Of a DNA stretch of 20,617 nt, positions 1,178 through 19,782 are shown in pieces. A program made the position numbers and the translations under genes. Within the stretch, counting starts at the first letter, position 1; each line of letters begins with the position of its first letter. The notes below the pieces were generated by a model, which saw only the letters and a list, made by a program, of their open reading frames with translations, had not been told where the DNA came from and did no database searches. The stretch comes from an uncultured Syntrophorhabdaceae bacterium. GTDB lineage: Bacteria > Desulfobacterota > Syntrophorhabdia > Syntrophorhabdales > Syntrophorhabdaceae. The DNA lies in assembly GCA_964393225.1 (NCBI GenBank), contig CAYMTB010000030.1:1-20617 (forward strand), given 5' to 3'.

Positions 1178-1954
1178 TTAAACAAATTGCTTGTTTTCTT
1201 TTCCATTTAATTGCTTTCCTTTGAGCCAGAGTTCCCACCCCATCTCGATTATCGTATTGCTGAGACCCAGACTGTAAAACACATTCTCTATTTTCATATT
1301 TCTGCAGAGCGAAACCATCTTTGCTATGCTCTCCCAGCCCTGTGTTTCGATCAGGTACTCGATAATGCTGGCTGCTTCTGCATAGGCAAGCTGTCTTATG
1401 TTTTCATCCGTATGACTAAAAAGTCTCATTGAGAGCACCTCAATAGGAATGGTTTTGTCATTCTTTATTGCATTTTGAAGCATTGAGCGATATTGATCAG
1501 ACATTTGTTGAGATATGCAGACTGCAAGTCCTTCATTCAACCAGTCGGGACAATTACCGTGGCACATTAGATCAAGGGCAAGGTGCGTTATCTCATGTGT
1601 CAGGACTACGCACAAAGACTCGGTGTCGCCATTCTCGAGTTCCGAAATGACTCTGATCTCTCCATCATATATGCCTGCTATCCAGGAGGCGTAGCGACTT
1701 CTCGACCTCCCTTCCTGTCTCATTTCCTCTTTGGAGTTATAAATATGAATATCTATTCCCCCGGGATTATATCCAAACATTTTTTGTATTATGCTTTGCG
1801 CCCGTTTGACCGTTCGGAACAATGCAAGAATGTCATGGTTCGGGTTCTTGATGTGAAATGAAATATTAATATCGTCTTGAGAAAGTCTGACGAAATCATC
1901 CCCACCGATATAACTTGAATCTGCTCCCTCCAAGCCTGTTGTTTCGCCTTGCAT
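1178..1954 (-). CDS. Gluzincin-type zinc metallopeptidase (peptidase MA-like domain)
   Basis: The 258-aa ORF contains VVLTHEITHLALDLMCHGNCPDWLNEGLAV. This is HExxH followed about 19 residues later by a NEGLA-type glutamate, the thermolysin/gluzincin signature. It is tightly spaced, 29 nt downstream of the transglutaminase-like gene. Confidence 0.65.
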   Translation of the reverse strand: MQGETTGLEGADSSYIGGDDFVRLSQDDINISFHIKNPNHDILALFRTVKRAQSIIQKMFGYNPGGIDIHIYNSKEEMRQEGRSRSRYASWIAGIYDGEIRVISELENGDTESLCVVLTHEITHLALDLMCHGNCPDWLNEGLAVCISQQMSDQYRSMLQNAIKNDKTIPIEVLSMRLFSHTDENIRQLAYAEAASIIEYLIETQGWESIAKMVSLCRNMKIENVFYSLGLSNTIIEMGWELWLKGKQLNGKENKQFV

Positions 1955-1983
1955 AACCCGCCTTCCGGTTTGTCAGACTGTGC

Positions 1984-3207
1984 TCACAATGGTAACGGTG
2001 CCACCCTCTCTCTCGCAATTATCACATCTATAACGGCCTCAAAAGATTTTGAGCAATAAAAGATTCCCTGATCTACACATTCCTTGAAATTCTTCTCGGA
2101 TGTAAAGGTCGTCGAGTTAATGGGTAAAATAAAACCTTCTTCTATTGCATTTTTGTACCGGTCATATCGTCCGTTTAAAAAAGCCATGTATTCTTCGTTA
2201 TTATCTATCCTCTTTTGTGAATACAGCTCTTTATCATGTTCCCAGAATTCATAAAACTTACCCATTGAGCGCCATACACCGAGAAAGGCATGGCCTGGAA
2301 TGAGAAATATCAGTGGATATAATCCGATCCTTTCCAAGCAAGCCGCATATAACAGGGCAAGATCGAGGCACGTCCCACGCCCTATATCCAGTATCTCTTC
2401 GGGCGGTAAGATTTTTTGCCCGGTTTTTTCAAAGCTTGCCGGAGGGTTTATGTATTTGATCTGGAGCTCATTCTGCAAAATAAGATAAAAGGCATGTGTC
2501 ATCGCAGTAACCTTATCTGCATTTCCCGACTGGTATCCGTCGAGAGATGATCCGAAATTGAGCTGTTCAAGGTAACTACCGGCCCCCTTTATGGCTTCTT
2601 TGACCGCAGTGGAATTAGGAAAGATAAAGCTTGCCAGTATATCGGGAAACAGCGGATGAAAATACCATTCATGATATGCCAGCACTTGAATTGGTCTTGT
2701 GTCAGCAAAGAGGGTATTTCCATCGGAAGCAATTTCAAACTTTAATGAGGCTTGCTCTTTTTCGTTCACATCACGGAGTCTCTTCTTGTCAATAGAGAGA
2801 TTAATATCCTCGTTCGTAAATTCTATATGCTGTCTTGATGGAATAGACTGGACAGTTTTCTCCCAGGGTACACAGTAGTCAGGGGCAAGTTCAATCCTGA
2901 GAATAATGTTGTGGATATCCGAGTATGATACATTGGAAATTTTAATGCTGTTCAGGAAGGGTACTCCACAATTCACAAGAGACCAGTTGAGCCTGTCCCA
3001 GCAATCAATATCAACCTGAATGTCCCTGGATTCTGCAGCCTTGAAACTGGTAAATCCCGACGATGAGCTCCGCTTGCCCGCTGTTTCGGATAAACCAGGG
3101 CTATCAGTATATCGTTTTTCGATATCAACCTTTGTAAAATCATGACCGCATGACGGACAGGTATTGTCGAGAATGCTGACTTCGGCCTTGCACCTTTTAC
3201 AGATCAT
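1984..3207 (-). CDS. N-terminal zinc-ribbon protein with a C-terminal transglutaminase-like cysteine protease fold
   Basis: The 407-aa ORF starts MICKRCKAEVSILDNTCPSCGHDF (CxxC-x11-CxxC). The C-terminal region GRGTCLDLALLYAACLERIGLYPLIFLIPGHAFLGVW...EHD fits the Cys-His-Asp transglutaminase-like core. Its start overlaps the stop of the upstream kinase gene by 4 nt. Confidence 0.7.
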   Translation of the reverse strand: MICKRCKAEVSILDNTCPSCGHDFTKVDIEKRYTDSPGLSETAGKRSSSSGFTSFKAAESRDIQVDIDCWDRLNWSLVNCGVPFLNSIKISNVSYSDIHNIILRIELAPDYCVPWEKTVQSIPSRQHIEFTNEDINLSIDKKRLRDVNEKEQASLKFEIASDGNTLFADTRPIQVLAYHEWYFHPLFPDILASFIFPNSTAVKEAIKGAGSYLEQLNFGSSLDGYQSGNADKVTAMTHAFYLILQNELQIKYINPPASFEKTGQKILPPEEILDIGRGTCLDLALLYAACLERIGLYPLIFLIPGHAFLGVWRSMGKFYEFWEHDKELYSQKRIDNNEEYMAFLNGRYDRYKNAIEEGFILPINSTTFTSEKNFKECVDQGIFYCSKSFEAVIDVIIARERVAPLPL

Positions 3208-5018
3208 ACAATAGCATTCCTTAATTCGTTTATACTCTGCCAGCGTTTCTCGCGCTCAAAAAGTATGCATTTCTGGATAGCTTTGTTGATCCGAAGTGAT
3301 GCTGCATCACTCTCTACAAATACAGGGACATAGGTGTTGTCGTGGTCCGTTGTCTTTCCCGTCAATACCTCATAAAGTGTAATCCCGAGAGAGAAAATAT
3401 CATCCCTTTCGTCTACATCGGCAGAATTAGCCCTCTGCTGGGGCGATGCGTATGGGGTGGTATAGGCGTGAAAGGCTATCCTGGACATCTTTATATCATC
3501 TTTATCTTTAGCAAGACCAAAATCGGCAAGCTTAATCCTTGCCGGATCAAGCGAGGTGTCGAGGAGTATGTTTTTGGGCTTTATATCCCGGTGGACGATA
3601 CCATTCTTATGAATGTATTCAACGGCATCAAGTAGTTGTGTGGTGAGTCCCCTGAATATCCCGTGAGTGAGGGGTTTTTTCAGTATGAATTCATTGAGGT
3701 CCCCGCCACCGATATAATCGAGGACAATGTAATGTTCGCCATTGGCCTCACCGTATTCGTATCCCTTGAGTATGTTTGGATGATCGAGCTTTTCTACAAG
3801 GAGTCTCCCTTCCCTCTTGAATCTGGCAATAAGCATCTCTGGGGATGCTTGAGTAGAAAGCTTCTCAAGCATCAGGTATTTAATAACTATGGGTTGGTTG
3901 CCTTCTATCCTGATCCCTCGAAATAATCTTGCCATACCGCCAGTGGCAATCTCTTCGAGTTTCATGTATTTCTTATCAAATGCCCCTTCTTCCCCTTTTT
4001 GCTTATCGTAAACCTTTTTGAGTCTCTCTATGGCGTTTTTAAGATCTGATTCTTCATGGGAAGTAAGTTTCCTGTCATACTCCGACGTTGGGTCAGTGGT
4101 AAGGAGTTTTTTCATGTCAAGCTTGTTTATTACTCGTCTTAACTCTGAGGCAACTGGCATGTCCTTTTCTGCACTATAGATATCGAGTACTGTTTGTCGG
4201 TTCACTTCTCCGTTCTCTTCTATTACCTTCAAGAGATACGTTGCAGCGTCTTTCCTGAGCTTTGCATCGGGGCTTTCTCTCAGGAAGTCACAGAGGGCTA
4301 TAGGGTCAAGGGGGAAAAGTTGTTTGGTTGGTCCTTCATTGGCATTAATATGGCGCTCATGATCTGCTTTATTCTCTTTCTTCTTCTGCTTGCCTGGTTC
4401 GCTGATAGGCCGACAAAGCAGTACATCTTCTATAAGTCTCCTGATTTCGCTTGCTGTCAGATTAATTTCCTTACTCCTGACTTGATGTGCTTTTTCAGGT
4501 AATTCAGGAAAGCCAACGATATGGAACCACGGCAACAAATTAAAGTTGAAGTATAATTGAGATTCTTGGTGAAGACGTGGGGAAATAGCTACGATGCTGC
4601 TTATCTGTTTAAACTCTGTATGTTCGGCTTTCTGGGATGCAATAAACCTGGGACGATTTTGGTTCAGAAAATCTCTCAGCGCAAAGTAATAAGCTCTCAC
4701 CTGCTGAAAAGGATTCCCGTGTTTCCCTCCCTTAAGATAAGCTTGTTCACCGTTCTGCCCGTCCATAATGAGCCATTCCCCGTTTTCCGACGCCTTAATC
4801 GGCTTTGAACATTCCTTCAGTTCAATGATGATGATCCCATTTTCCTTAAAAACAGCAAGGTCCATATCTGCAATACCACAACTGAAGTTAAAAGCTACAC
4901 CGACAAAAGTATCCAAACTGGAGAATTTTGCAGAGAACATGTCTATTATCTGTTGCTGGGCTGACACTTCATGGGCATATTCAAACTCCGGTTTGCCCGT
5001 CCAGAACTCTATCGGCAT
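3204..5018 (-). CDS. NERD (nuclease-related, PD-(D/E)xK-like) domain fused to a Hanks-type Ser/Thr protein kinase
   Basis: The 604-aa ORF has an N-terminal region (residues ~10-125) matching the NERD pattern: EYAHEVSAQQQIIDMF, then ADMDLAVFKENGIIIIELKE (D...ELK catalytic-like motif), then ENGEWLI, then NPFQQVRAYYFALRDFL. The C-terminal half (~350-604) carries kinase subdomains: IATGGMARLF, IVIKYL (Lys), HRDIKPKNILL, ADFGLA, SPQQ (APE-like) and DIFSLGITLYEVLTG. A strong SD, AGGAGGGG, lies 3 nt before the ATG. Confidence 0.8.
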   Translation of the reverse strand: MPIEFWTGKPEFEYAHEVSAQQQIIDMFSAKFSSLDTFVGVAFNFSCGIADMDLAVFKENGIIIIELKECSKPIKASENGEWLIMDGQNGEQAYLKGGKHGNPFQQVRAYYFALRDFLNQNRPRFIASQKAEHTEFKQISSIVAISPRLHQESQLYFNFNLLPWFHIVGFPELPEKAHQVRSKEINLTASEIRRLIEDVLLCRPISEPGKQKKKENKADHERHINANEGPTKQLFPLDPIALCDFLRESPDAKLRKDAATYLLKVIEENGEVNRQTVLDIYSAEKDMPVASELRRVINKLDMKKLLTTDPTSEYDRKLTSHEESDLKNAIERLKKVYDKQKGEEGAFDKKYMKLEEIATGGMARLFRGIRIEGNQPIVIKYLMLEKLSTQASPEMLIARFKREGRLLVEKLDHPNILKGYEYGEANGEHYIVLDYIGGGDLNEFILKKPLTHGIFRGLTTQLLDAVEYIHKNGIVHRDIKPKNILLDTSLDPARIKLADFGLAKDKDDIKMSRIAFHAYTTPYASPQQRANSADVDERDDIFSLGITLYEVLTGKTTDHDNTYVPVFVESDAASLRINKAIQKCILFEREKRWQSINELRNAIV

Positions 5019-5045
5019 TTACCCCTCCTGAATGGTTTCAGTAAA

Positions 5046-7160
5046 CTAATCGGGTTCTATTTCGTATCTACAGGAAGGACATCGTTTTGCTGGCGCTTTG
5101 AATTCAATCTTCTTTTTGCAGCTCGGGCATATCGTTACATAGACAACCTCTTTTTCCGGCGTACCCATTTGAACATTATAGAAACCAGGTCCTCCTGGAC
5201 TTCCCCCGGGGCCAGGGTAAAATCCACCGGGGGGCCCGCCCTGGCCGTATGGAGGATATACAACATTCGGTCTCCCACTCTGAGCAACACCTACAGCAAT
5301 GTCCTTTGCCGTATCGAGGGCCTTGTTGTGTTCCCGCTCGAACTGAGCCATGGCCTTATCCTTTTCCTGGAGGGTTTTGTCTTTTTCCTCCATTATTTGC
5401 TTGTAGAATGCATCCCTCTCTTCATGAGATAAAGCTTCAAGGGCTTTTGCCAGTTCAGGTGATTTCTGTGCCATGTACCATTTGACCTTCTCCTCGGATA
5501 AATCCTTAAGGTTTTCGGATTCCCGCATCTCCTTGATTATCCTTGCCTGTTCAGGTCCCACCATGGCAAGAATTGCCTCTACCTTTACATTGTCAAAGGT
5601 TTTTATCTTATCTATCTCGTGCTGTTGAGCGGCACGTATTTTTTCCATTTCAAGCGCTTGCAGCTTTGTCTGTCTCTCTAATTCCGTCAACATACGTTCA
5701 TGGTCTTCTTTGCGGTTTACTGCCTGTAATTTTTCCAAGGCTAAGAGATCGTTCTCATCTTCCAGTTTTTCCAGTTCTAATTCGATCCTTTTCTTTTCTG
5801 CTTCGGTTTTGGCTTTATCCAGTTCTATCCTGAGAGTTACTTCGCTGTTCCTGGCCTGCTCTTCCCTTGCAATAAGGTTCCGAATCTTCAGTTCATCTAT
5901 TTCAGCATTTAACTGAACCTTTTTCTTCTCAATCTGTTTTTCAAGAACCTCTTTTTCTATACCTTCCTTCCCTACCAGCCTCTGTCTCTCGTAGTCCAGT
6001 TCCTGCTGCAGGGAAAGCTGCCTTATTGCAAATTGCCTTCTAAGATTATGATCCACCGCCTTCTCGTCAAGCGTTATCTTTAACTCCCTCATTTCTTCAT
6101 CACGCAGAAGCTTTCCCTTTTCTATCTCCATGAGAAAAATCTCAATTTCCTCATCGGATTTACCCTTGTCAAGAAGGTATTCCTTCAGGCGTTTCCTTGT
6201 ATCGGCGGCAACCTTCCATTCACCTATTTCCTGATCAGCTTCAACGCCTTTTACGTCCAGATCAGCTTCCATTTTTGCCCGTTTCCGATCAACCATTGCC
6301 TTGGACATCATCCGGTAGTGTTCCGTTTTCTTTGTTTCCTCGAAGATATCCTGGAGCTGAGACTCATCGTACACGTCAAACAGCCTTTTTCTCCTCTTCA
6401 GTTTTGCATCTTCTTCGCTCACGAGGAGAAAAATCTCCTCGTTAATGCCCCTTATCTTGTCATAACCCTTAAAATTGTAGTCGACTGTTCGAAGCTGTAT
6501 AAAACGAAAACCATTCCGCTCGAAAGTCCTTTCAAGGTGTTTCTCCACAGAGACCTCAAACTCACGCTTCAAGTCTAAATTCCAGTTAAGATCACTCACT
6601 GACCTTTCACTTATTAATGCATTGAATGCATTCTGCATTTCATAATAGAGAGACGCCCTCAATTCATTCTTAGGGTATCGCTCCATGCGCTTCACGACAT
6701 TGTTGTAGAATTTCGTGTAATCTGCTATCTGGACTACGACATTGCAACGGATATCTATTGAAAGAGGGTCTTTCGTATATGCCGGTATGATTATGGTAAA
6801 TTCAAGATCACTCGCATCGACAATAACGGCAGTAACCTTTCTGTATGTTCCGGGAATAGAATCAGAAATCTCGTTAAGCCAACCTTCGTTGTATAGGCCT
6901 GGTTCTAATGTCTCTGCAAGGGCACCATTAATAAAGAGAAGTGCCTTGTTTCCCTGTTCTACGACGATACCTTTTTTCAGCGTTGCGGGGAAATCGTCGT
7001 AGTCAACGCGGGTGGCAATATACTCAGCATCCCTTTGCCATGAAGCGCCTTCCATATTTGACGCTTCAGGTGTTTCGCCGAGTTGCTCCGAGCATTCTAT
7101 GCAATATCTTTCCCCGGCTGGATTTTCGTGACCCTTGGAACACCTGACTATTTCCGGCAT
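5046..7160 (-). CDS. SPFH/band-7 (flotillin-like) protein with zinc ribbons at both termini, a long E/K-rich coiled coil and a Gly/Pro-rich tail. No transmembrane segment.
   Basis: The 704-aa ORF starts MPEIVRCSKGHENPAGERYCIECSEQL (zinc ribbon). The SPFH core follows: KGIVVEQGNKALLFINGALAETLEPGLYN ... TIIIPAYTKDPLSIDIRCNVVVQIADYTKFYNNV ... LRASLYYEMQNAFNALISERSVSDL. After that come ~330 aa of charged heptad-like sequence, then GGPPGGFYPGPGGSPGGPGFY, then CPSCKKKIEF...CPSCRYEIEPD (second zinc ribbon). An SD, GAGGGGG, precedes the ATG. Confidence 0.7.
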   Translation of the reverse strand: MPEIVRCSKGHENPAGERYCIECSEQLGETPEASNMEGASWQRDAEYIATRVDYDDFPATLKKGIVVEQGNKALLFINGALAETLEPGLYNEGWLNEISDSIPGTYRKVTAVIVDASDLEFTIIIPAYTKDPLSIDIRCNVVVQIADYTKFYNNVVKRMERYPKNELRASLYYEMQNAFNALISERSVSDLNWNLDLKREFEVSVEKHLERTFERNGFRFIQLRTVDYNFKGYDKIRGINEEIFLLVSEEDAKLKRRKRLFDVYDESQLQDIFEETKKTEHYRMMSKAMVDRKRAKMEADLDVKGVEADQEIGEWKVAADTRKRLKEYLLDKGKSDEEIEIFLMEIEKGKLLRDEEMRELKITLDEKAVDHNLRRQFAIRQLSLQQELDYERQRLVGKEGIEKEVLEKQIEKKKVQLNAEIDELKIRNLIAREEQARNSEVTLRIELDKAKTEAEKKRIELELEKLEDENDLLALEKLQAVNRKEDHERMLTELERQTKLQALEMEKIRAAQQHEIDKIKTFDNVKVEAILAMVGPEQARIIKEMRESENLKDLSEEKVKWYMAQKSPELAKALEALSHEERDAFYKQIMEEKDKTLQEKDKAMAQFEREHNKALDTAKDIAVGVAQSGRPNVVYPPYGQGGPPGGFYPGPGGSPGGPGFYNVQMGTPEKEVVYVTICPSCKKKIEFKAPAKRCPSCRYEIEPD

Positions 7161-7209
7161 TTTATACCCCCTCTATGGACTTATGGACTTTATGATAAAC
7201 TTGATTTCC

Positions 7210-8271
7210 TCATATTTTTCTATTTCTGAATTCATTTACAACATTCTTAATGGAGCGATGCAATGTATTTACATCCTTTTCGATATTATCTGTACCGTCT
7301 GCAGTAACCTTGTCGTATAGTAAGCCGCTTGCCTTTGTAAGGGTTTCGAGACTTTCCTTGAATTCTCTATCAAATTCGAGGGTCTCTTTCAATTCTCCTT
7401 TACTGCGCATTGCCGTACTCCCCCTGGCAGCGTTCTCAACGAGTTCCTTCAGGGCCAAGGCATCCATCTCCAGGTCTTTCATCATCCTGGCTGCCTTACT
7501 GCTGCCCTTGTCCATTGCTTTCGATTTTGCCTCGGAGATATCAGTAAGTACCTTGCCGACCTCCTTTGCAAGGTTCACCCGCGTTTTTACATCCTCTGTT
7601 ATCACATTTTCTTTCACCTTTGTCTTCACGCGGACCAATACTATCAAAGCAATAAAACCAAGGACGATGACAACAACCCCGATGAAAAGACCGTTTCTCC
7701 AAGGTGACACAGCAGTCACGGCAAAGTCCTTCGAGAAGACAATCTCGCCTTTCTCCACATCGTCGAGCTTCAGGTGAACCTTCATGGAATACGAGAGAAA
7801 ACCACTTCCGGCAGCATCCACCTTTCCCATGAGAAGCCCTTGAACGCCCTTGATCTTGCCATGCCGAATCCTCGTTTTCTCATCCATAATATCCTTGAGC
7901 TGGAGGCCCTGCTCTGTCAGTATCTTGTCGAGATCGGCCCGCTCGATTACTTTAAAGCTGGTTTTTTCCGTTATTGCTGACACAACAGCGTTCCTGATTG
8001 TGCCATCATCACCTTCAAGGTCGAGTACTGTTATCCGGACAATACTTCCTTCCACGGGAAGCGCCTTCACTAAAACTCTCTGGAAGTTTTTGATAGCCTG
8101 GCTTTTGAGATCCTCTGCTGCAAAAGCAGATATGGAAAAGAAAAACAGAAAAACGAAGCAAATGAATACAGCTGATAGGTTTTTTCTTTGCATTAAACCC
8201 CTCCCTAAGCGCCCCCGCAGATTTTTTTTAATAATTTCATTGTAAATTACGTTATCCATAAAGTCAATCAT
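7210..8271 (-). CDS. Membrane protein with an N-terminal signal/anchor, a periplasmic CsgG/LpoB-like region, one TM helix and a charged cytoplasmic tail
   Basis: The 353-aa ORF has a hydrophobic N-terminus, AVFICFVFLFFFSISAFAAE. The motif FKVIERADLDKILTEQGLQL is typical of the CsgG/FlgO/LpoB-type periplasmic fold. An internal TM, LFIGVVVIVLGFIALIVLV, is followed by an E/K-rich tail. The true start may be the internal MQRKNL. The gene abuts the stop of the upstream gene (8272). Confidence 0.45.
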   Translation of the reverse strand: MIDFMDNVIYNEIIKKNLRGRLGRGLMQRKNLSAVFICFVFLFFFSISAFAAEDLKSQAIKNFQRVLVKALPVEGSIVRITVLDLEGDDGTIRNAVVSAITEKTSFKVIERADLDKILTEQGLQLKDIMDEKTRIRHGKIKGVQGLLMGKVDAAGSGFLSYSMKVHLKLDDVEKGEIVFSKDFAVTAVSPWRNGLFIGVVVIVLGFIALIVLVRVKTKVKENVITEDVKTRVNLAKEVGKVLTDISEAKSKAMDKGSSKAARMMKDLEMDALALKELVENAARGSTAMRSKGELKETLEFDREFKESLETLTKASGLLYDKVTADGTDNIEKDVNTLHRSIKNVVNEFRNRKI

Positions 8272-9531
8272 TTACATTAGCTTCCTTGCTTCAAGATAAA
8301 TTGTTGACCCCTTTACGTTCTCAATGACAAAACTATTCAATCCCGCAATCTCTCTGATAAGATAATCGACATCTTTTCCTGCTTTGACACGCATCACCAT
8401 CTTTTCGGATATAATGTCCATTTTGACAGCCTTAATTTCCCTCAAATAGGGGATTGCTGATAACAAACCTTTTATTTTACCGATAGATGAATATCCCCCT
8501 GTTTCCCTGATTATAAGCGTAAAGCTCTTCACTTCTTTTTTGCTAAGAATCTTCATTGTCCCTTCAGTCAAAGATGTGGAAGCCTTTTGAAGGGCATCGA
8601 GGCACGCCTTATCTTCACCGCTCCCAAAGCCTTTAATATTCTGCCCTGAAGTAATGGTATTTACTTTGTTGCTTCCTATGTTATAAACCCTTGCGTGCCC
8701 CTTTGCATGCGCTGAATAGATTTCCTGTGTCTTTTCGCTAAAAGATGCTTCGACAGATCCCATAATAATAGTGTTTGCCAACAAATACATACCAAGGGAC
8801 TTAACGGCCGCAGCGCCTCCTCTTCCCGAAGAAGCAATGAGCCGTGTCAGTGTATCATTTTTCATTGTGCGGTAGCCCACAACGGTATACCCTTTTAATT
8901 TTACCTTTGAAATAATTTCTTGCTCAAGGATACGTTTTTTCGTGGGTTTTTTGTTGCTCTTTTCTTCAGTAATGACAATTATTCTGTCATCGAAGAGGTT
9001 TTGAGATATGGCCTCTTCAACAATTCCTTTGTTGATTTTAAACTCCATCCTCACATTTAAAGCGCCGCCATCATCTCTATTTTCCGAAAGCGTTTTGGTT
9101 TCACCAAAAATATCTCCTTCTTTTGCCTTGAAGACTTTCAGGAGATACACCTTCTCTTTTGAAACGAGGTCAGGATGTACATATAACCCGGCAGCTTTCA
9201 GGATTGCCTTTTCCCGTGCGTTCGCGATGGCCGCTCCGCGTGCTTCTTCTGTGTCCTTCCCTTCCGGTATCCCGGCTTTCCCTTCTGCTACAATAATCAC
9301 TGCGGTATCAGCTGCCTCCTGTGATGCCTGCCCTTTTATTGTGGTATCACCGGAAGTTAGAGGCGCTGCTGCAGCATATGCATGAATGAGAAGCGCCAGA
9401 TAAATGACGACTAAAAGCCCTATAGTTACAACCCGTGCCGCCTTAAACTGTATGCACATAAACCAATACCTCCATTTACTGTGTAATAATGTTTTCATGA
9501 TTGCCCCACAGCTTACTCCGGGGTAGTTCAT
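8272..9531 (-). CDS. Membrane-anchored periplasmic protein with an LPP20-like region
   Basis: The 419-aa ORF has a TM/signal anchor, VVTIGLLVVIYLALLIHAYAAAAP, and the motif TEEARGAAIANAREKAILKAAG, which resembles LPP20/FlgP-type lipoprotein domains. Its start overlaps the PP2C stop by 4 nt. Confidence 0.45.
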   Translation of the reverse strand: MNYPGVSCGAIMKTLLHSKWRYWFMCIQFKAARVVTIGLLVVIYLALLIHAYAAAAPLTSGDTTIKGQASQEAADTAVIIVAEGKAGIPEGKDTEEARGAAIANAREKAILKAAGLYVHPDLVSKEKVYLLKVFKAKEGDIFGETKTLSENRDDGGALNVRMEFKINKGIVEEAISQNLFDDRIIVITEEKSNKKPTKKRILEQEIISKVKLKGYTVVGYRTMKNDTLTRLIASSGRGGAAAVKSLGMYLLANTIIMGSVEASFSEKTQEIYSAHAKGHARVYNIGSNKVNTITSGQNIKGFGSGEDKACLDALQKASTSLTEGTMKILSKKEVKSFTLIIRETGGYSSIGKIKGLLSAIPYLREIKAVKMDIISEKMVMRVKAGKDVDYLIREIAGLNSFVIENVKGSTIYLEARKLM

Positions 9532-10373
9532 TTCCTTTTTCTTAGTATCCGGCGCATTAAACTTCGTTTTTTTGCCTCGACCACAATAACAGAAACATTA
9601 TCCGGTGCACCTCCCTCAATTGTCTCTTTAATAAGGGCTTCGCATTTATCCTTAGCAGAAATACTGTTCATCAGAATCTTACTTGCTACATCAACATTCA
9701 GGACCCTGAAGAGACCATCGGATGAGAGCAGAAATATGTCGCTGTCTCCAACATCAAATATACTGATATCGGGTTTTACCGCTTCTCTTGCGCCCACAGC
9801 CCTGGTCAAGGCATGGCTCAATCGATGGTTTTCTGCCTCCAGATCGGTAATCATGCCCAGATCAACAAGGTTTTGCGCCTGCGTATGGTCTTTCGTCAGC
9901 TTTTCCGTCGTTCCGCCCCGTATGCGGTAGGCCCTGCTGTCTCCTACATGGGCAAGGATGACCTTCTCATCCCTGAATAAAAGAAATGTCAGAGTTGTGC
10001 CCATTATTTCGTCTCCGGACTGCCCGTAGATATTCCGGTGAGCCTCCTGGATTGACATCGAAACAAGCGACATAATAGTGGAGTCGTCGCCCGCCCTATC
10101 TATCAAGTCTGGCACGATATTTTTCTTCATGAAATCATGGATCGCATTTACCGCTTCCCGGCTTGCAATCTCTCCCTTTGCATGCCCGCCCATCCCATCG
10201 GCGACGATGTAAAGCATAAGATCGTTGTCAACAAGGATACTATCCTGATTGTTTGTCCTCCTGATACCCTTATCTGTCATACCGTATCCGTTCATAGACA
10301 CTTTATGTGATTTCCTCTTTATCTGTGATTTGGATCTGTTTGTCATCCGCAACCTCGATCTGCTTTTCATCAT
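9528..10373 (-). CDS. PP2C-family Ser/Thr protein phosphatase (PstP/Stp-like)
   Basis: The 281-aa ORF reads MTDKGIRRTNNQDSILVDNDLMLYIVADGMGGHAKGEIASREAV... The DGMGGH metal-binding motif is present, with later acidic motifs (VGDSRAY, LLSSDGL). The basic N-terminal 27 residues of the longest ORF may not be translated, and the start is probably MNGYGMTDKG. The stop of the upstream gene overlaps this start by 1 nt (TAATG). Confidence 0.9.
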   Translation of the reverse strand: MMKSRSRLRMTNRSKSQIKRKSHKVSMNGYGMTDKGIRRTNNQDSILVDNDLMLYIVADGMGGHAKGEIASREAVNAIHDFMKKNIVPDLIDRAGDDSTIMSLVSMSIQEAHRNIYGQSGDEIMGTTLTFLLFRDEKVILAHVGDSRAYRIRGGTTEKLTKDHTQAQNLVDLGMITDLEAENHRLSHALTRAVGAREAVKPDISIFDVGDSDIFLLSSDGLFRVLNVDVASKILMNSISAKDKCEALIKETIEGGAPDNVSVIVVEAKKRSLMRRILRKRK

Positions 10374-10792
10374 TATTTTATGCTTATTGAATAATTGTAA
10401 AGCATTATTTTCTCTCCTATTGTAATCCTCGCCTTATTCTTGCCCGGTCTTTCACCTTTAATTGCTATACTATCTTCAGTGTGGCTCAGGATATTCCATT
10501 CCCCGCCGTTAATAAAAATATCACAGAGAACAGGCGGTATCCCCGGCCCTTTCAACGGGATGTCGCACTCGGGACTTCTCCCGATACGGTAATGGCGTTT
10601 TCTGAGGGGCATGCTGAGAAACACTGCTCCGTCTCGCATGACCGTCAAGAGACGCTCTGCCCTCTGTTTTGGCGAAGACATTCTTGCCGTACCATTTAAG
10701 ATGCTTGCGAAGAGAAGTAGGAGTGCGACAACCCCGGCGGAGGCCACAAAGACTGCGTTGAGCAGTTTTATCGTATAGTGAGTCAGTTCCAT
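10373..10792 (-). CDS. FhaB/FipA-like membrane-anchored FHA domain protein
   Basis: The 139-aa ORF has an N-terminal TM, LLNAVFVASAGVVALLLLFASIL. An FHA core follows: HYRIGRSPECDIPL...ILSHTEDSIAIKG. It sits between the fhaA-like gene and the PP2C gene, as in the actinobacterial fhaA-fhaB-pstP order. Confidence 0.75.
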   Translation of the reverse strand: MELTHYTIKLLNAVFVASAGVVALLLLFASILNGTARMSSPKQRAERLLTVMRDGAVFLSMPLRKRHYRIGRSPECDIPLKGPGIPPVLCDIFINGGEWNILSHTEDSIAIKGERPGKNKARITIGEKIMLYNYSISIK

Positions 10793-11707
10793 TTATGCCA
10801 CTTTCAGGAGTACTTTCTTGCCTACGGCAATAACATCGCCTTTTGCAAGCTCCGCTTCATCAATTTCAATACCATTCACCCCGGTCCCGTTCTTGCTTCC
10901 CATATCCTGAATCCTTAGTTTCCCCTGCCTAATGATGAGCTTAAAATGCATCCTCGAAATGCGATGTTCCTCATCTTTTAAAAGAATGTGTGCCTCCTTG
11001 CCCCTTCCAAAGGTGTATTCCCCTTCCTGGAGGGCAATCACGTCTCCTTTATCTTCACCATCAATAATTTCAAGCTTTACCCTTGCAGTATCAAAGTACT
11101 GTGTCAGCGATTCCTCGAAAATGTGTGTTCCCACATCATCAATAATCTTCGTATGCTGTTTTTCGTCCTTGCTGTAAGGGGCATTGACGGCATTATCTGT
11201 TCCATGGGGGGATTCCTTCGCGTGACCGGGGTTTTTCATCTCCTCCGGGTGTTCCTGGAAGAGAGGTATAACACCCTTTTTTTCGTCATGCTCAGGGAAA
11301 AGCGGCGCATTGCCCCTTGACTGTTGTGGAGACGATTTCTCCTTGAGAAAAGATGACTCCACCGCCATCTGATTGCGAAGCAGTCCAGCATCTTCCCGTA
11401 TCTCGATGTTGACAGATGTTGAAAGAAGCTTATATCCCTTTTTCCTGATTCTCTCGTTCAGTTTGTTTTTCAATTGTTCCTTGATACCCGAAAGAAGAGG
11501 GGAAATCTCTTCGTAGTCGAAGGGGCTGAGATACATGATGTAGACATTAGGCACAAAGGCCTTCTCCTCGATGCCGTATTTCTTTCGCTTTTCAAGCTCC
11601 CTGAAAAGCTTAATGAGTATATCTCTGGGCTGAATCTCCGTGGCAGACGTGTGAAAAAACCGTGTAAAGATACTAAAAACACCTTTAATCCTGTTAATGA
11701 ACTCCAT
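10793..11707 (-). CDS. FhaA-like protein: N-terminal DUF3662-like domain plus C-terminal FHA domain
   Basis: The 304-aa ORF has N-terminal IKGVFSIFTRFF...EIQPRDILIKLFRELEKRK...FVPNVYIMYLSPFDYEEI, a DUF3662-like pattern. The C-terminal region YTFGRGKEAHILLKDEEHRISRMHFKLIIRQGKLRIQDMGSKNGTGVNGIEI is a clear FHA domain. A strong SD, AAGGGAGGG, lies 5 nt before the ATG. Confidence 0.8.
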   Translation of the reverse strand: MEFINRIKGVFSIFTRFFHTSATEIQPRDILIKLFRELEKRKKYGIEEKAFVPNVYIMYLSPFDYEEISPLLSGIKEQLKNKLNERIRKKGYKLLSTSVNIEIREDAGLLRNQMAVESSFLKEKSSPQQSRGNAPLFPEHDEKKGVIPLFQEHPEEMKNPGHAKESPHGTDNAVNAPYSKDEKQHTKIIDDVGTHIFEESLTQYFDTARVKLEIIDGEDKGDVIALQEGEYTFGRGKEAHILLKDEEHRISRMHFKLIIRQGKLRIQDMGSKNGTGVNGIEIDEAELAKGDVIAVGKKVLLKVA

Positions 11708-11916: not shown

Positions 11917-14100
11917 AAAACAGAAAATCAGAATCCAGAAGACAACTACCTGGGGGAAGAGGCAATCCTAAACCCGCTGTAGAAGTCCCTGTCCGACGGA
12001 TCGTCGCTGCCCCGGACCGAAGCACGGATGCTCCCCGGAATGCCGTCCCAACTGCCGCCACGAAGCACCCTGTCTCGACCAGAAGAAGGACCTTGAGGGT
12101 TGTCTCTGGGACTTCTTTTATAATAGTTTTCATCGTACAAGTCCGATACCCATTCCCAGACATTGCCGGTCATGTCATAGAGACCGAGGGAATTGGGCTG
12201 TTTCTGGCCTACAGGGTGGGTTTTACTGCCTGAGTTCAAGTAGTACCAGGCATAGTTTCCAAGTTCTGAATCGGAGCTTGTACCTGCATATTTCTCTTTC
12301 TTGCCGCCACTGCGGGCGGCATATTCCCACTCTGCCTCGGTGGGGAGGCGGTAGGATTTGCCGGTACGGGAGTTGAGTTTCTGGATGAACCCCTGGGCAT
12401 CGTCCCAGGAGACTTCTTCTACGGGACAGGTATCACCGCAGGATGAAAGGTGTGAGGGATTGCTGCCCATGATAGTTTTCCACTGTCCCTGGGTGACTTC
12501 GTATTTCCCTATGGAGAAATCAGAGACGCAGACATTGTGGACCGGTTTTTCATCGGATGAGCCACCGCCGAAGGTATCCCCCATGTCGAAACATCCGCCT
12601 TTCACGAAGACAAATTCCATGCCCGTTACAGGGTCGGTATAGGCAGAAACTAAAGTTGGTTTTGCAGGAACTGGCACAGTGGTTGCTGCTGTTTTCTTGG
12701 CAGGTTTTAGGAACTCATACAGATATTGTATGGTTTCTGCAGGAGTTACGTTTTCTTTATAATTACGATAATAGTATAGGCCTATTACGCCGGCAAAAAT
12801 GATAAAAGTGGTAACGAATAAGAAAACAATAACCTCTGTATCCGCTTTCCTCCAGGTCTGTGCTTTCCTTTCTTCTTGTTTTCTTTGTGCGTCTTCTGCC
12901 TCGTGTCTGCGTTTATCCTCTTCTTCCTGTTTCTTTTCTTCTTCCTTCTGTTTCTTTTCTTCTTTTACCCGCTTTAATTCCTGTTCCCGATGCTGCTTTT
13001 TCTGTTCCTGCTCCTTCCGTTCCTCTTCCTCTATCTTCTTCCTTTCAAGGAACTGTTCTCTTTCGCACCTCACCCTCTCATCTTTTTCCTGCTGTTGTTT
13101 TATGAGCGTTTCCTGACGCTCTTTCTCTTCTTCTTCTTTCTGTCTCCGCTCTGCCTCTTCAGCTTCGTTCTTGAGCCGCTTCTCTTCCTGCCTTTTCCGT
13201 TCACCTTCTTCGACCTCTTTCTGTCTTATTTCCTCTTCATGTCGTCGTTTTTCATCCTTTGTCTTCTCCACTATGTTAAGAAAAGCATCCGAGAGTTCCC
13301 TGGCATTCCCATAGCGATTCTCCTTTCGAATAGCAACACACTTCCGGTAGATGTCGTTGATCTCAGGAGGAAGAGATGGATTGAATTCTGTGGGCGGTTC
13401 CGGCCCTATGGTATTCTCCAGCGTAAGCAGTTCAAAGAGTACTACCCCTACGGAGTAGATATCGGAGCGTTGATCCACCAGGTCCGGTTTGTTTTTCTGT
13501 TCCGGAGACATGTAATAGGCAGTGCCGATTCCTTTCCTGGCATCTTTGTGGACATCGAGGACCATAGCAAGGCCGAAGTCGGTGAGCTTGAGGGCATTAT
13601 CGGCGGCAATGAGGATGTTCTCTGGTTTAATGTCCCTGTGGACGGTAAGCTTGTGGGCCTCAGTGAGGGCATCGCAGAGCTGGGAGATAATGGGATATGC
13701 TTCGTCAAGGGTAAAGGGCTCTCCGGTCTTCTTTCTCTCTTCGATAATCTCCCGTAAGGCCTTTCCTTCTATCCACTCCATGGTAAAGAATTCGAGACCG
13801 TTATAGTCATTGATGTCGTAGACTCTCACGATATTGAAGTGACGGAGGTCGCGGGATATCATTACCTCCTGTCGAAACATATTAAGGATATCCTGCGAAT
13901 TGAGGAGATGGGGGTGGATAACCTTGAGGGTGGTGATCCTCCCTCCGAGCTTTGTATCCTTTACCTTATAGACAACACCCATACCTCCTTTCTTGCCTTC
14001 TGTGATGATCTCATACCGGGAGGCAAAGAGGGAGCCGGGGGTAAAGGGGTTTTCTATGATCTCAGGGCCGGTGTAAGAGTCATCGATGTGGGCAAAGAGG
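11917..14100 (-). repeat. Copy A of a dispersed, mosaic gene duplication (kinase-FGE paralogs about 4.2 kb apart). It includes a conserved ~27-nt 3' flank.
   Basis: Direct comparison shows 12290-12330 and 16735-16775 share gcggcatattcccactctgcctc[g/a]gtggggaggcggta. The 13540-13740 and 17628-17830 segments are about 92% identical. The 3' flanks cagaaaacagaaaatcagaat[c/a]caga are shared. The middle segments (coiled coil/TM versus none) are unrelated. Confidence 0.7.
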
Positions 14101-14144
14101 TCGTCATGATTACCCCTTCCGCTGCCTCCCTTTCTGTCTGTCAA
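11946..14144 (-). CDS. Receptor-type Ser/Thr protein kinase (kinase-FGE paralog A): Hanks kinase, E/K/R-rich coiled coil, single TM helix, extracytoplasmic FGE-sulfatase (SUMF1-like) domain
   Basis: The 732-aa ORF has a kinase domain (KKGGMGVVYKV, LKVIH, HRDIKPENILI, TDFGLA, YMSPEQ, DIYSVGVVLFELLT). About 130 aa of KEEEKKQEEE-type repeats follow. The TM is VIVFLFVTTFIIFAGVIGLYYY. The FGE-like domain reads FVFVKGGCFDMGD...YRLPTEAEWEYAAR...GNVWEWVSD...RVLRGGSW...GFRIASS. The start as called is a TTG immediately after an in-frame TAA; an AGAAAGG SD-like sequence lies 8 nt upstream. Confidence 0.85.
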   Translation of the reverse strand: MTDRKGGSGRGNHDDLFAHIDDSYTGPEIIENPFTPGSLFASRYEIITEGKKGGMGVVYKVKDTKLGGRITTLKVIHPHLLNSQDILNMFRQEVMISRDLRHFNIVRVYDINDYNGLEFFTMEWIEGKALREIIEERKKTGEPFTLDEAYPIISQLCDALTEAHKLTVHRDIKPENILIAADNALKLTDFGLAMVLDVHKDARKGIGTAYYMSPEQKNKPDLVDQRSDIYSVGVVLFELLTLENTIGPEPPTEFNPSLPPEINDIYRKCVAIRKENRYGNARELSDAFLNIVEKTKDEKRRHEEEIRQKEVEEGERKRQEEKRLKNEAEEAERRQKEEEEKERQETLIKQQQEKDERVRCEREQFLERKKIEEEERKEQEQKKQHREQELKRVKEEKKQKEEEKKQEEEDKRRHEAEDAQRKQEERKAQTWRKADTEVIVFLFVTTFIIFAGVIGLYYYRNYKENVTPAETIQYLYEFLKPAKKTAATTVPVPAKPTLVSAYTDPVTGMEFVFVKGGCFDMGDTFGGGSSDEKPVHNVCVSDFSIGKYEVTQGQWKTIMGSNPSHLSSCGDTCPVEEVSWDDAQGFIQKLNSRTGKSYRLPTEAEWEYAARSGGKKEKYAGTSSDSELGNYAWYYLNSGSKTHPVGQKQPNSLGLYDMTGNVWEWVSDLYDENYYKRSPRDNPQGPSSGRDRVLRGGSWDGIPGSIRASVRGSDDPSDRDFYSGFRIASSPR

Positions 14145-14211: not shown

Positions 14212-16002
14212 TTATTCCTTCTTGTCCCCTGATGCAAGAGTCACATGCAGCATGACATCGCCGATTGTAATCTCTGAGTGTTCCGGGAGCAGTTTTCGTA
14301 TCTCGGGTTCCAGCCTTGTTCTGTCCAGATATGTCCCGTACTTCGAGTTTAGATCCTCAATAAAATACCGCCCTTCCCGAACTGAGAGTCGAGTGTGAAT
14401 GTCCGATACCGTTTCATTATCTATAGATATGCCGTTTGAAATGTCCCGGCCTATGGTGAGCTCCTTTACCAGAATAATATATCCTTCTGCACCAGGACAG
14501 TTGTTCTTGCGCGTGATCAACGCTGCATGGGCAAGACCCTTTGTATCCACCGGGAGGAGCCTCCACATAAGGTCAAGATGACCTGCCACACCGATGAGAG
14601 CGTGGTCAGGAATCATGCATGCCACATTGGGCTCAAGCCTTTGCCCGTTGAGAAAGGTGCCATGGGTACTCCCTTTTTCGTGTGTACCCGTATCCACTAT
14701 GAAAAAGACACCGTTTTTCTTAACAATCTCACACTGTTTGGCGCTTATCCGTATATTCTGCGTATAGTAGGACATAGGTACGCTTCCCGGATATGTTTCT
14801 TCAAGGAGAAGTCGATTGAGTTGCCTGATCATAATCTGCTCTTCCTTATGCATTTTCCGATATTCCTTCCTTTGTCGGAAGCCTTCCGCTCTTTTAATGT
14901 GGCCGGTAATATGCCCAGAATATTTCCTCAACGCCTTCTGCATGCCTGCTGCAGGAGGGAGCTTTTGAAGCATTTCATAGAGGTCGGACTGGGTAATGAA
15001 GGTATTCAAAGCCTCTATACCTGCAACATCATCGGACAAATCGGGCAGATTAAATCCTGCGCGACGCAGGTTTTCAGAGAGTGCAGATGCACTATAAGGA
15101 GGCGCAAACTGTTCGGCATAGAAGTCCGGCGAATCAACAAACTTCGTGCCATCCTCTGACCATCTGGTTTGCGGGAAGACCAGCGTAACGATATCGTTGT
15201 CCGGTCCCCTCCCGAGAGAAATACTCTTCTTTGAAAAAAGGTATACTCTTCTTTCCGGACGATCGAAAGTAATGACACCGGAGGTAGATGGTTTAACCTG
15301 TTTTAGCTCTATTTCGTCGCGTTGTCTTTGTGTCTCATCCTCATCCAGATCAAAATTAATCCTCCACCAGAACTCCTCATCAACCCCTTGAGAAAAGGAA
15401 GAACTTTTCGGGCCTTCTTTTATAAAAGGAAGTATATCTTCCATGCCCAGATTCTCCCTGATTATACCTCTATTATTCTCATTATTTAATGTAAGGGCGA
15501 AACTTTGTATACCCGATGACGCACTGCTGTGAACCTTGAATGGAATGGTTGTGTTGAAAATAAATGGCCTTCCTTTAGAGTCGGCATATTTAAGAATCAG
15601 CCTTGCTATATAGACCCCGCCTTTTTCAGGGAAAAACGAGAAATATTCACTTTTCCCTTTTGTGAGGGCTTTATAGGGAATTTTTCTTTCTTCCGGTTCT
15701 TTCCTCAGTTCATGCTCAATAACAAAAAGGATATCTGAAATCTTGCTTGACGTAACGCGGGTAAATTTCAATTCAAAATTGCAGTTGTTGTCTTGAATAT
15801 ATACCTTCTTAATATTGAGCCATGCAGCTATATCAATGTTTTCAAGCCCCAATTCCCTGCGAACCTGATGCCTGTGTTCATCGGTAAGCTCAGCAAGGCA
15901 CTCTGCGCAACAGGAAATATTGTCCAGAGGTCTGTTGAGCTGGAGGTACGATTCAACCATGTCATTCAGCTCTTTCCTGCATTCAGGGTTTGGACATCGC
16001 AT
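14212..16002 (-). CDS. Zinc-ribbon protein with two C-terminal FHA domains and a possible third, degenerate one
   Basis: The 596-aa ORF starts MRCPNPECRKELNDMVESYLQLNRPLDNISCCAECL (zinc ribbon). FHA1 reads ISAKQCEIVKKNGVFFIVDTGTHEKGSTHGTFLNGQRLEP. FHA2 reads LTIGRDISNGISIDNETVSDIHTRLSVREGRYFIEDLNSKYGTYLDRTRLEP. A middle segment, SISLGRGPDNDIVTLVF, is FHA-like. Confidence 0.75.
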   Translation of the reverse strand: MRCPNPECRKELNDMVESYLQLNRPLDNISCCAECLAELTDEHRHQVRRELGLENIDIAAWLNIKKVYIQDNNCNFELKFTRVTSSKISDILFVIEHELRKEPEERKIPYKALTKGKSEYFSFFPEKGGVYIARLILKYADSKGRPFIFNTTIPFKVHSSASSGIQSFALTLNNENNRGIIRENLGMEDILPFIKEGPKSSSFSQGVDEEFWWRINFDLDEDETQRQRDEIELKQVKPSTSGVITFDRPERRVYLFSKKSISLGRGPDNDIVTLVFPQTRWSEDGTKFVDSPDFYAEQFAPPYSASALSENLRRAGFNLPDLSDDVAGIEALNTFITQSDLYEMLQKLPPAAGMQKALRKYSGHITGHIKRAEGFRQRKEYRKMHKEEQIMIRQLNRLLLEETYPGSVPMSYYTQNIRISAKQCEIVKKNGVFFIVDTGTHEKGSTHGTFLNGQRLEPNVACMIPDHALIGVAGHLDLMWRLLPVDTKGLAHAALITRKNNCPGAEGYIILVKELTIGRDISNGISIDNETVSDIHTRLSVREGRYFIEDLNSKYGTYLDRTRLEPEIRKLLPEHSEITIGDVMLHVTLASGDKKE

Positions 16003-18160: not shown

Positions 18161-18202
18161 GGTGTAAGATTTGTCGATGTGGGCAAAGGGGTCGTCAGTC
18201 AT
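16343..18202 (-). CDS. Soluble Ser/Thr protein kinase (kinase-FGE paralog B): Hanks kinase plus C-terminal FGE-sulfatase-like domain. No TM and no coiled coil.
   Basis: The 619-aa ORF has a kinase domain about 85% identical at protein level to paralog A (RKGGMGIVYKV, HRDIKPENILI, TDFGLA, YMSPEQ). The linker has no 20-residue hydrophobic stretch. The FGE-like domain reads VFVKGGTYEMGD...YRLPTEAEWEYAAR...GNVCEWCHDWFDENYY...RVLRGGCW...GFRVAAS. Confidence 0.85.
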   Translation of the reverse strand: MTDDPFAHIDKSYTGSEIIEDPFSPGSLFASRYEIITEGRKGGMGIVYKVKDTKLRGKITALKVIHQNLLSSEHILEMFRQEVAISLDLSHPNIVRVYGINDYNSFEFFTMEWIEGKTLREIVDEKKETGKPFTLDEAYPIISQLCDALTEAHKHTVHRDIKPENILIASDNTLKLTDFGLAMVLDVHKDARKGIGTAYYMSPEQKNNPDQVDKRSDIYSVGVILFELLTLENVIGLEPPSELNPSLPKEIDSITKKALATKRENRYGDAEELSDALTKIAEKEKEIPIAEKTIKYVYKNNVWIYIPEFNIATGKYLAPVLNNNGDVISIKKYSDDYDIEKSIRSTLNKAFKNNYVKFIDDEINSNRLKKIVEKETEQYTCPVTGIESVFVKGGTYEMGDTFGDANDDEKPVHTVTVNDFYLGKYLVTQGQWKKIMGNNPSRFQEGDDYPVESVSWDAAQEFIKELNRKTDGKYRLPTEAEWEYAARERGKKVRFGTGKDSISTEEANFDASKDYVEPYSSAGEYREKTTQVGTFKPNSLGLYDMSGNVCEWCHDWFDENYYKDSPKDNPQGPSTGSPRVLRGGCWFSFPRNVRAASRFIYHPSIRYNVNGFRVAASPG

Positions 18203-19773: not shown

Positions 19774-19782
19774 AAAAATATT

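Follow-up and report, generated by a model that had tools for sequence, protein, structure and literature searches.

We describe a gene on the minus strand (3204..5018) of contig CAYMTB010000030.1 from an uncultured Syntrophorhabdaceae bacterium, a stretch of 20,617 nucleotides that was analysed at its full length and is called the window below. Its product, a protein of 604 amino acids (aa), joins an N-terminal NERD-type PD-(D/E)xK nuclease domain, a helical middle domain and a C-terminal Hanks-type Ser/Thr kinase in a single polypeptide. By sequence, the kinase half reads as an active Hanks kinase, and the NERD domain is apparently competent for catalysis. The reading that we favour, with confidence somewhat short of even, is that the protein works as a nuclease effector tethered to a kinase switch. 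In more concrete terms, and again at slightly under an even chance, it could be a cytoplasmic Hanks kinase of a conserved chromosomal FHA/PP2C/multi-kinase operon of syntrophic Desulfobacterota that has acquired a NERD domain by way of a flexible tether of ~30 residues. The pairing of NERD with a kinase is not new; the compact architecture and the operon context are.

Architecture of the 604-aa protein

A single open reading frame (ORF) of 604 codons fills 3204-5018 on the minus strand, from an ATG at 5018-5016 to a stop codon at 3204-3206, as read from the list of ORFs and their translations; a plus-strand reading of the same interval is full of stops and was ruled out. The sequence GGAGG (5024..5028, minus), a strong Shine-Dalgarno element, lies 5 nucleotides (nt) 5' of the ATG and 27 nt past the stop codon of the preceding SPFH gene, and the N-terminus MPIEFW, counted from residue 1, is kept across the family. 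At the other end, the TGA stop codon and the start codon of the following gene overlap in the sequence ATGA. Since the 14 largest ORFs tile the 20.6-kb window and all lie on the same strand, the fusion gene is situated inside a long operon. A scan for promoters and terminators around it gave no signal over shuffled background.

An exact-sequence look-up of the window protein returned no match, because the public copy differs from it by one substitution, K96E. This near-copy, which has no other difference, is present with the same neighbours in a GenBank metagenome-assembled genome (MAG; GCA_037128475.1) and in an independent European Nucleotide Archive (ENA) assembly (ERZ27300065). Thus, the fusion is no assembly artefact, and a chimeric origin was rejected, as independent assemblies hold the same ORF. 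The initial annotation, made from the sequence alone, had proposed that one polypeptide combines a nuclease-like domain with a kinase, and the single ORF, the Pfam matches to NERD and Pkinase and the independent assemblies bear this out.

The nuclease module (referred to as the N-module) spans aa 1-205 (4404..5018, minus), with the Pfam NERD core at aa 48-123 (4650-4877). Over this core PF08378 scored 27.8 bits against a gathering score of 22.1 (E 3.9e-6); the same profile also matched 68 of 79 family members, the best of them with an E of 4.5e-15. The NERD domain predicted at the N-terminus is thereby recovered above the gathering score, a significant match in the N-terminal residues having been the check proposed for it. 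The predicted D...ELK signature of PD-(D/E)xK enzymes is found in ADMDLAVFKENGIIIIELKE, with D53, E66 and K68, and the NPFQQ motif, also noted at the outset, contains Q106. The catalytic core D53...E66-x-K68 occupies 4815..4862 (minus). Upstream of it lies a conserved Glu, E17 (4968-4970, minus), and downstream a Q106xxxY110 motif (4689-4703, minus), which resembles the QxxxY motif of RecB-like PD-(D/E)xK nucleases.

Aligning the N-modules of 110 homologues revealed E17 in 100%, D53 in 99%, Glu or Asp at position 66 in 100%, K68 in 100% and Q106 in 100%, so that the conservation of the catalytic Asp/Glu/Lys among homologues, a further check, amounts to 99-100% (n=110). Eleven other positions (N44, K58, E78, N79, G80, W82, N102, P103, P147, W164 and F165) are conserved in at least 84% of these modules. 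All five catalytic positions and ~15 further near-invariant positions are kept in the 604-aa protein. The model of the N-module is confident and has a restriction-endonuclease-like alpha/beta fold; in the AlphaFold model of the whole protein, the predicted local distance difference test score (pLDDT) of the alpha/beta domain (1-205) is above 90. A profile search of the N-module against PDB sequences returned AcrVA1 only, at an insignificant level.

The model of the whole protein (mean pLDDT 88.3) falls into four regions. The initial annotation had placed ~220 residues between the two recognised domains: such a stretch exists, but its limits had to be redrawn, as the nuclease module reaches aa ~205 and not 120, and is followed by a linker (206-235) and a helical domain (236-345). 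Conservation in the family alignment ends at aa ~205, where a Lys/Glu-rich disordered linker begins (4314..4403, minus; pLDDT below 50 at 211-231). Within the linker, T231-K-Q-L (aa 231-234; 4317-4328, minus) fits the pT-x-x-(I/L/V) preference of FHA domains, which could be due to chance. TxxI/L motifs are also seen just before the helical domain in three relatives (P0078, P0100 and P0081), in columns that are not strictly aligned.

The middle domain (aa 236-345; 3984..4313, minus) consists of five helices, modelled over 239-341 at a pLDDT of ~90, and is an N-terminal appendage conserved in this kinase family: the segment corresponding to aa ~236-345 directly precedes the kinase in NERD-less proteins of ~400 aa (P0078, P0081, P0084, P0100 and P0126). 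It matched no Pfam family, and matches of the HEAT/ARM type were sub-threshold only, so that 'HEAT-like' is a weak label for it.

The kinase domain covers aa 346-604 (3207..3983, minus), with K380 at 3879-3881, HRDIKPKN at 3570-3593 and DFG at 3516-3524. Pkinase (PF00069) matched aa 351-559 with 131.4 bits against a gathering score of 31.7 (E 5e-38), and the motifs first read by eye, IVIKYL (K380), HRDIKPKN (476-483), DFG (499-501) and SPQQ, are all present. K380, E403, H476-R477-D478, N483 and D499-x-G501 are invariant in the family alignment; position 500 is Phe throughout, except in the relative P0041. The PknB-type glycine loop reads GFGGMS, and the loop of the 604-aa protein, A358-T-G360-G361-M-A, resembles it with the first Gly replaced by Ala; orthologues have G, A or D here. 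Foldseek matched the kinase domains of CaMKII, MST and PknB (TM-score to target ~0.75), and kinase domains were the only matches of the whole-protein model in the PDB. No membrane segment was found in the 604-aa protein, and a membrane receptor kinase was rejected on this ground.

Origin of the fusion

The kinase and the nuclease have separate histories. At least 15 orthologous kinases are devoid of NERD, among them P0078, P0081, P0084, P0100, P0126, L012 and L033-L040; these are 41-54% identical to the 604-aa protein over the helical domain and kinase and start ~10-85 residues ahead of the helical domain. Within this kinase family, NERD is found only in the 604-aa protein, together with its near-identical copies, and in one further protein, P0015. 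In a neighbour-joining tree the 604-aa protein nests within the NERD-less kinase clade. These comparisons show that NERD is derived, having been added to a kinase already resident in a conserved chromosomal operon. As the orthologues stand in collinear operons without NERD, the kinase has a role of its own, to which NERD was an added output.

To find relatives of the N-terminal half, aa 1-345 were used as the query in an exhaustive HMMER search, which gave 485 representative clusters, of which the top 150 were listed; a word-indexed search with the same query gave two relatives only. In the top 150 representatives, proteins of 100-1,500 aa, the N-module is placed at residue 1 or within ~40 residues of it, and in most of them at residue 1 itself. 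Its partners are mostly superfamily 1 (SF1) helicases (UvrD, Dna2, Upf1-like) and STAND NTPases (NB-ARC, NACHT, nSTAND3) with TPR, WD40 or Sel1 repeats. A survey for the architecture seen here, which the initial annotation had suggested, revealed a kinase partner in just 4 of ~140 top N-module representatives. No match to the N-module was detected in phage genomes, and matches on plasmids were rare; the possibility of a phage-borne gene was rejected on the former result.

In all four NERD-kinase fusions both the nuclease and the kinase catalytic residues are intact. P0041 adjoins a Prok_Ub gene. P0058 (855 aa) has an AAA_35 ATPase added to NERD and kinase, and its neighbours encode EAD7-AAA_35 and AAA_35-kinase proteins. 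On one metagenome contig (L009, 220-7635) an EAD7+AAA_35 gene, P0058 and an AAA_35+kinase gene (1,163 aa) are adjacent and look like a conflict-system trio centred on this NERD subtype. Because their NERD and kinase sub-clades and their contexts differ, P0041 and P0058 are independent fusions. P0015, seen on four contigs, is a fusion in an operon of the same type as that in the window; every site is kept in it, and it may or may not share the fusion event of the 604-aa protein. Overall, fusion of this NERD subtype to a kinase has taken place on at least two or three separate occasions. That both catalytic sets are kept in each recurrent fusion argues for functional coupling in cis, and the recurrence of independent NERD-kinase fusions suggests that such coupling is general.

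These data also bear on the view that NERD is non-functional here, either a neutral recent accretion or a decaying domain with no part in the job of the kinase. The at least 15 orthologous kinases that work without NERD speak for it, as does the deviation at the otherwise conserved position R111 (see below). Nevertheless, we consider it very improbable, given that the five catalytic and ~15 near-invariant positions are kept, the N-module model is very confident, and the N-terminal start and the ribosome-binding site are intact. In addition, two near-identical copies from independent samples hold the full ORF, and the second operon-type fusion, P0015 on its four contigs, likewise keeps every site.

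The operon and a possible mode of action

All genes of the window described here lie on the minus strand. Heading the co-oriented array (18346-20169) are an SLT lytic transglycosylase, which has two LysM domains, and a lipoprotein with a glycine zipper. Two paralogous Hanks kinases with C-terminal FGE-sulfatase (formylglycine-generating-enzyme-like) domains are encoded at 16343-18202 and 11946-14144, the latter having a long Glu/Lys-rich low-complexity insert between the kinase and FGE-sulfatase domains. The gene between them (14212-16002) encodes a protein of 596 aa that begins with a Cys-rich segment resembling a Zn-ribbon and ends in two FHA domains; a related locus (L010) holds an orthologue of similar architecture (565 aa). 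Pfam identified the three genes that come next as those of an FhaA_N+FHA protein (10793-11707), a small FHA protein (10373-10792) and a PP2C phosphatase (9528-10373), as had been expected of the region upstream, in the direction of transcription (9528-11707). Orthologues of these three (37-48% identity) are present in L010, where they adjoin FtsW/RodA, a penicillin-binding protein (PBP) and SLT-LysM. L010 is also flanked, beside FtsW and the PBP, by an orthologue of the SLT-LysM protein, 51% identical in the 65 residues that could be aligned at the contig end.

Closer to the fusion gene are a 419-aa protein of no known family (8272-9531), a CsgG/LpoB-like protein (7210-8271; Pfam CsgG and LpoB) and, immediately upstream, a Zn-ribbon/SPFH (Band 7)/coiled-coil/Zn-ribbon protein (5046..7160; Pfam Band_7), all three conserved operon members. 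Orthologues of the first two (31-59% identity) were found in L004, L007, L010, L012 and L035, and those of the Zn-ribbon-SPFH protein (33-44% identity) in L007, L011, L012, L035, L036 and L040. Downstream, the gene translationally coupled through the ATGA overlap (1984..3207) encodes a 407-aa protein with an N-terminal Zn-ribbon and a ~330-aa domain like the ProA N-terminus, matching positions 1-314 of the NCBIfam model antiphage_ProA (E 8e-72). In Klebsiella, Raoultella, Acinetobacter and cyanobacteria the same ProA-N-like domain heads ~1,960-aa plasmid proteins annotated as 'DUF3320 domain-containing protein / DNA helicase'. A 45%-identical orthologue of the 407-aa protein follows a NERD-less kinase in L011. 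Neither a Pfam domain nor a PDB relative was found for it, and full-text searching of the literature on the identity of 'ProA' gave nothing usable. In its motif GRGTCLDLALLYAACLERIGL...PGHAFLGVW we see what may be a Cys/His core of the transglutaminase type. The next gene encodes a Peptidase_MA_2 zincin (1178..1954; Pfam E 1.7e-14), also a conserved operon member, whose orthologues (37-54% identity) adjoin orthologous kinases in L004, L010, L011, L012 and L040. The left edge of the window cuts a gene short (1-1150); its product has several Zn-ribbon motifs of the CxxC type and, after them, a coiled-coil-like stretch rich in Lys and Glu. A gene occupies the corresponding place in L002, the near-identical MAG contig.

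A comparison of loci revealed a collinear block in the order 419-aa protein, CsgG/LpoB-like protein, Zn-ribbon-SPFH protein, variable slot, helical-domain kinase, variable slot and Peptidase_MA_2. It corresponds to 1178-9531 in the window, recurs in L007, L010, L011, L012, L035, L036 and L040, and was found in a Syntrophus MAG, a 5.5-Mb Syntrophorhabdaceae chromosome and eight metagenome contigs. The block is often near FhaA, FhaB, PP2C, FtsW/RodA, PBP, SLT-LysM and FGE-sulfatase kinases, and a sigma-70-like and Zn-finger pair often comes after it. In L007 the SPFH gene is separated from the NERD-less kinase by a gene (4529-5698) for a 389-aa protein with a weak Peptidase_U49 (Lit-like) match, so that variable, effector-like genes may flank the conserved kinase. 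No description of this operon type was found by literature search. Together with FhaA, FhaB and PP2C, the block might represent an undescribed envelope-surveillance pathway, though we regard this as distinctly doubtful, with a cytoplasmic Hanks kinase as its hub and effectors interchanged by fusion or adjacency. With equal reserve, such effectors could be NERD in this operon, the ProA-N-like protein and, in other loci, zincin or Lit-like peptidases. If true, this would amount to an immune or suicide circuit that is centred on a kinase and wired into the machinery of cell-wall growth, and the NERD-kinase would be its nuclease-armed variant.

How might a tethered nuclease be switched? STAND proteins of the Avs/NLR type have their effector at the N-terminus and sense through their C-terminal repeats; PD-(D/E)xK nucleases as a rule work as dimers or larger oligomers; and activation of Hanks kinases by dimerisation and trans-autophosphorylation is established for PknB. 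Taken together, these make a kinase switch with a tethered nuclease the most economical model. A signal would reach the kinase through envelope-associated partners (the 419-aa protein, the CsgG/LpoB-like protein and the Zn-ribbon-SPFH scaffold) and would lead to its dimerisation and trans-autophosphorylation. Activation would bring together, or release, two tethered nuclease domains, and DNA would be cut. In parallel, the kinase would phosphorylate FHA-readable targets, and PP2C would reset the system. The physiological role would most likely be a response to stress or to an invader, with DNA as the target. Nuclease activity, kinase activity, the direction of control and the signal are what we infer in this scheme.

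Of the two hypotheses that the initial annotation had offered, that phosphorylation gates the nuclease, perhaps through the FHA proteins and PP2C, and that the kinase reports a nucleic-acid state, we rank the former above the latter. In the sequence available around P0041 (a 5.4-kb contig) and P0058 (11.6 kb) there is no FHA or PP2C gene, and gating through FHA and PP2C is therefore not a general requirement. This argues that coupling is intrinsic to the polypeptide, and that control by FHA and PP2C is an operon-specific overlay.

Several observations weigh against a tethered nuclease effector. Residue 111, just after the QxxxY motif, is Tyr in the 604-aa protein (4686-4688, minus), while Arg or Lys is found there in 101 of 110 homologues; it is the sole strongly conserved basic position at which the protein departs from the N-module family, and the change could weaken DNA binding or catalysis. 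The predicted template modelling score (pTM) of the whole-protein model is 0.55, at which the inter-domain geometry is uninformative, so that activation coupled to dimerisation is a conjecture. The locus looks chromosomal and housekeeping-like, with relatives that adjoin FtsW/RodA, PBP and SLT-LysM. A PADLOC scan of seven neighbouring proteins found no known defence system, and no recognisable defence island is present; this result and the peptidoglycan-linked chromosomal context argue against a simple defence-island reading.

Were information to flow the opposite way, from DNA to kinase, the protein would be a DNA-sensing kinase, in which NERD is the input: it would bind, and perhaps nick, free ends, damaged or foreign DNA and so activate the kinase, FHA-readable substrates would be phosphorylated, and cell-wall growth or division would be halted or remodelled. 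We consider this rather unlikely, and equally so its corollary, a checkpoint-like link from DNA status to the FHA/PP2C envelope module. The chromosomal FHA/PP2C/kinase locus, whose relatives are associated with FtsW/RodA, PBP and SLT-LysM, is consistent with such a link, and so is the fact that, of the two, the kinase is the part that is conserved and that functions in its own right where NERD is missing. However, invariance extends beyond binding surfaces to the catalytic residues, both among 110 homologues and in each of the kinase fusions, which points to selection for cleavage. Moreover, elsewhere the N-module takes the N-terminal effector position of STAND/NLR-like proteins, where the sensors are the C-terminal repeats.

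Comparison with known systems

To our knowledge, NERD and a kinase are otherwise joined only inside giant defence proteins (PglW and DndF), where the relation between the two has not been worked out. A NERD domain followed by an S/T/Y kinase is documented in PglW of type-2 BREX/Pgl and in a subset of DndF proteins (PMC12839542, PMC10853773), and the NERD domain of both has been read as a suicidal or back-up effector (PMC12839542, PMC10853773). PglW undergoes autophosphorylation by its kinase, does not defend without the catalytic Lys of that kinase and is toxic in E. coli; its NERD domain is uncharacterised (PMC4365076). A NERD protein is also a component of HEC-02, an experimentally active defence system (bioRxiv 10.1101/2024.01.29.577857). 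A specialist would not be very surprised by the NERD-kinase pairing itself.

PglW of Streptomyces coelicolor resembles the 604-aa protein in having an N-terminal NERD-type PD-(D/E)xK domain and then a Hanks Ser/Thr kinase in one polypeptide. It differs in its size (1,400-1,600 aa), in an inactive pseudokinase before the active kinase, in a C-terminal sensor half of ~800 aa and in its partners PglX, PglY and PglZ, whereas the 604-aa protein has a single kinase, a helical domain in the place of the pseudokinase, and ends with the kinase. The NCBIfam PglW model NF033442 scored 64.2 bits against a cutoff of 990, with aa 398-568 aligned to model positions 553-721, the kinase region only. None of the 14 largest ORFs of the window encodes a BREX or Dnd protein, PglX, PglY and PglZ included, according to Pfam, and none of the seven proteins scanned with PADLOC matched BREX. 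Membership in PglW was thus rejected, on the score and on the lack of a pseudokinase, a sensor half and PglX/PglY/PglZ. The protein can be seen as a pared-down N-terminal half of PglW, a minimal form that is soluble and has a single nuclease, a single kinase and a flexible tether. With natural NERD-less orthologues as built-in controls, and a cognate PP2C and FHA proteins in the same operon, it is a tractable system in which to ask whether a Hanks kinase gates a PD-(D/E)xK nuclease, or the reverse.

The Hanks kinase domain is also what the protein has in common with the single-protein or kinase-centred defence kinases Stk2, PD-T4-6 and MADS MAD6, matched by PADLOC models with E values of 1e-23 to 5e-51. 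These matches are limited to the kinase fold, and none of the three models aligned to the NERD region. The PADLOC mad6 match covers aa 316-556 only, and the MAD6 model NF047741 scored 111.5 bits against a cutoff of 460, on which membership in MADS MAD6 was rejected.

PglW and DndF suggest a further possibility, namely that nuclease and kinase are independent co-effectors of an unrecognised abortive-infection or defence operon, the nuclease hitting DNA and the kinase hitting host or phage proteins with no control of one by the other; we think this unlikely. Both domains would then respond to an upstream sensor, with the ProA-N-like protein and the zincin peptidase as additional effectors, an extension that seems no less doubtful. 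It agrees with the Aravind-lab reading of the NERD and S/T/Y-kinase modules in PglW and DndF (PMC12839542, PMC10853773), and the kinase scores strongly against the PADLOC defence-kinase models mad6, PD-T4-6, MkoA and Stk2. Neighbouring domains are effector-like (ProA-N-like, Peptidase_MA and, weakly, Peptidase_U49/Lit-like in L007), gene content varies on both sides of the conserved kinase, and P0058 and P0041 stand in conflict-system contexts (EAD7, AAA_35, Prok_Ub). However, the PADLOC matches reflect the generic kinase fold only, as expected of any Hanks kinase, and PADLOC recognised no known defence system in the seven neighbouring proteins that it was run on. Gene order at the locus is shared across genera (30-59% identity) on chromosomal contigs of Mb scale, beside peptidoglycan genes, and the N-module gave no match in phage genomes and few on plasmids.

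PDC-M16A, an N-module joined to a RecD-like helicase in ~900 aa, belongs to PDC-M16, a candidate defence system (bioRxiv 10.1101/2024.01.29.577857). Only aa 10-220 of the 604-aa protein align with it, at profile positions 10-207 of 917, and membership was rejected because the match is to the N-module only. Three members of the same N-module family (P0144, P0146 and P0105) match PDC-M16A end to end. The 604-aa protein shares with PDC-M16A and other N-module proteins the ~200-aa NERD subtype and identical invariant residues, at 25-52% identity; their C-terminal part is a helicase or a STAND ATPase with repeats, whereas here it is a kinase.

The operon itself finds a parallel in Actinobacteria, where the cluster has the order fhaA-fhaB-pstP-rodA-pbpA-pknA-pknB and a membrane kinase with an extracellular PASTA sensor. 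In both, genes for an FhaA_N+FHA protein, a small membrane FHA protein and PP2C stand in a row, followed by Hanks kinases; in the window the FHA/PP2C genes are co-oriented with the kinases at 3204-5018, 11946-14144 and 16343-18202, all minus. FtsW/RodA and PBP genes are absent from the window and present in the related loci L004 and L010, which extends the likeness to the peptidoglycan genes of the cluster. The present operon also differs from the cluster: it has extra genes (CsgG-like, SPFH, zincin and the FGE-sulfatase kinases), and its NERD-bearing kinase is cytoplasmic, with neither a transmembrane segment nor PASTA domains.

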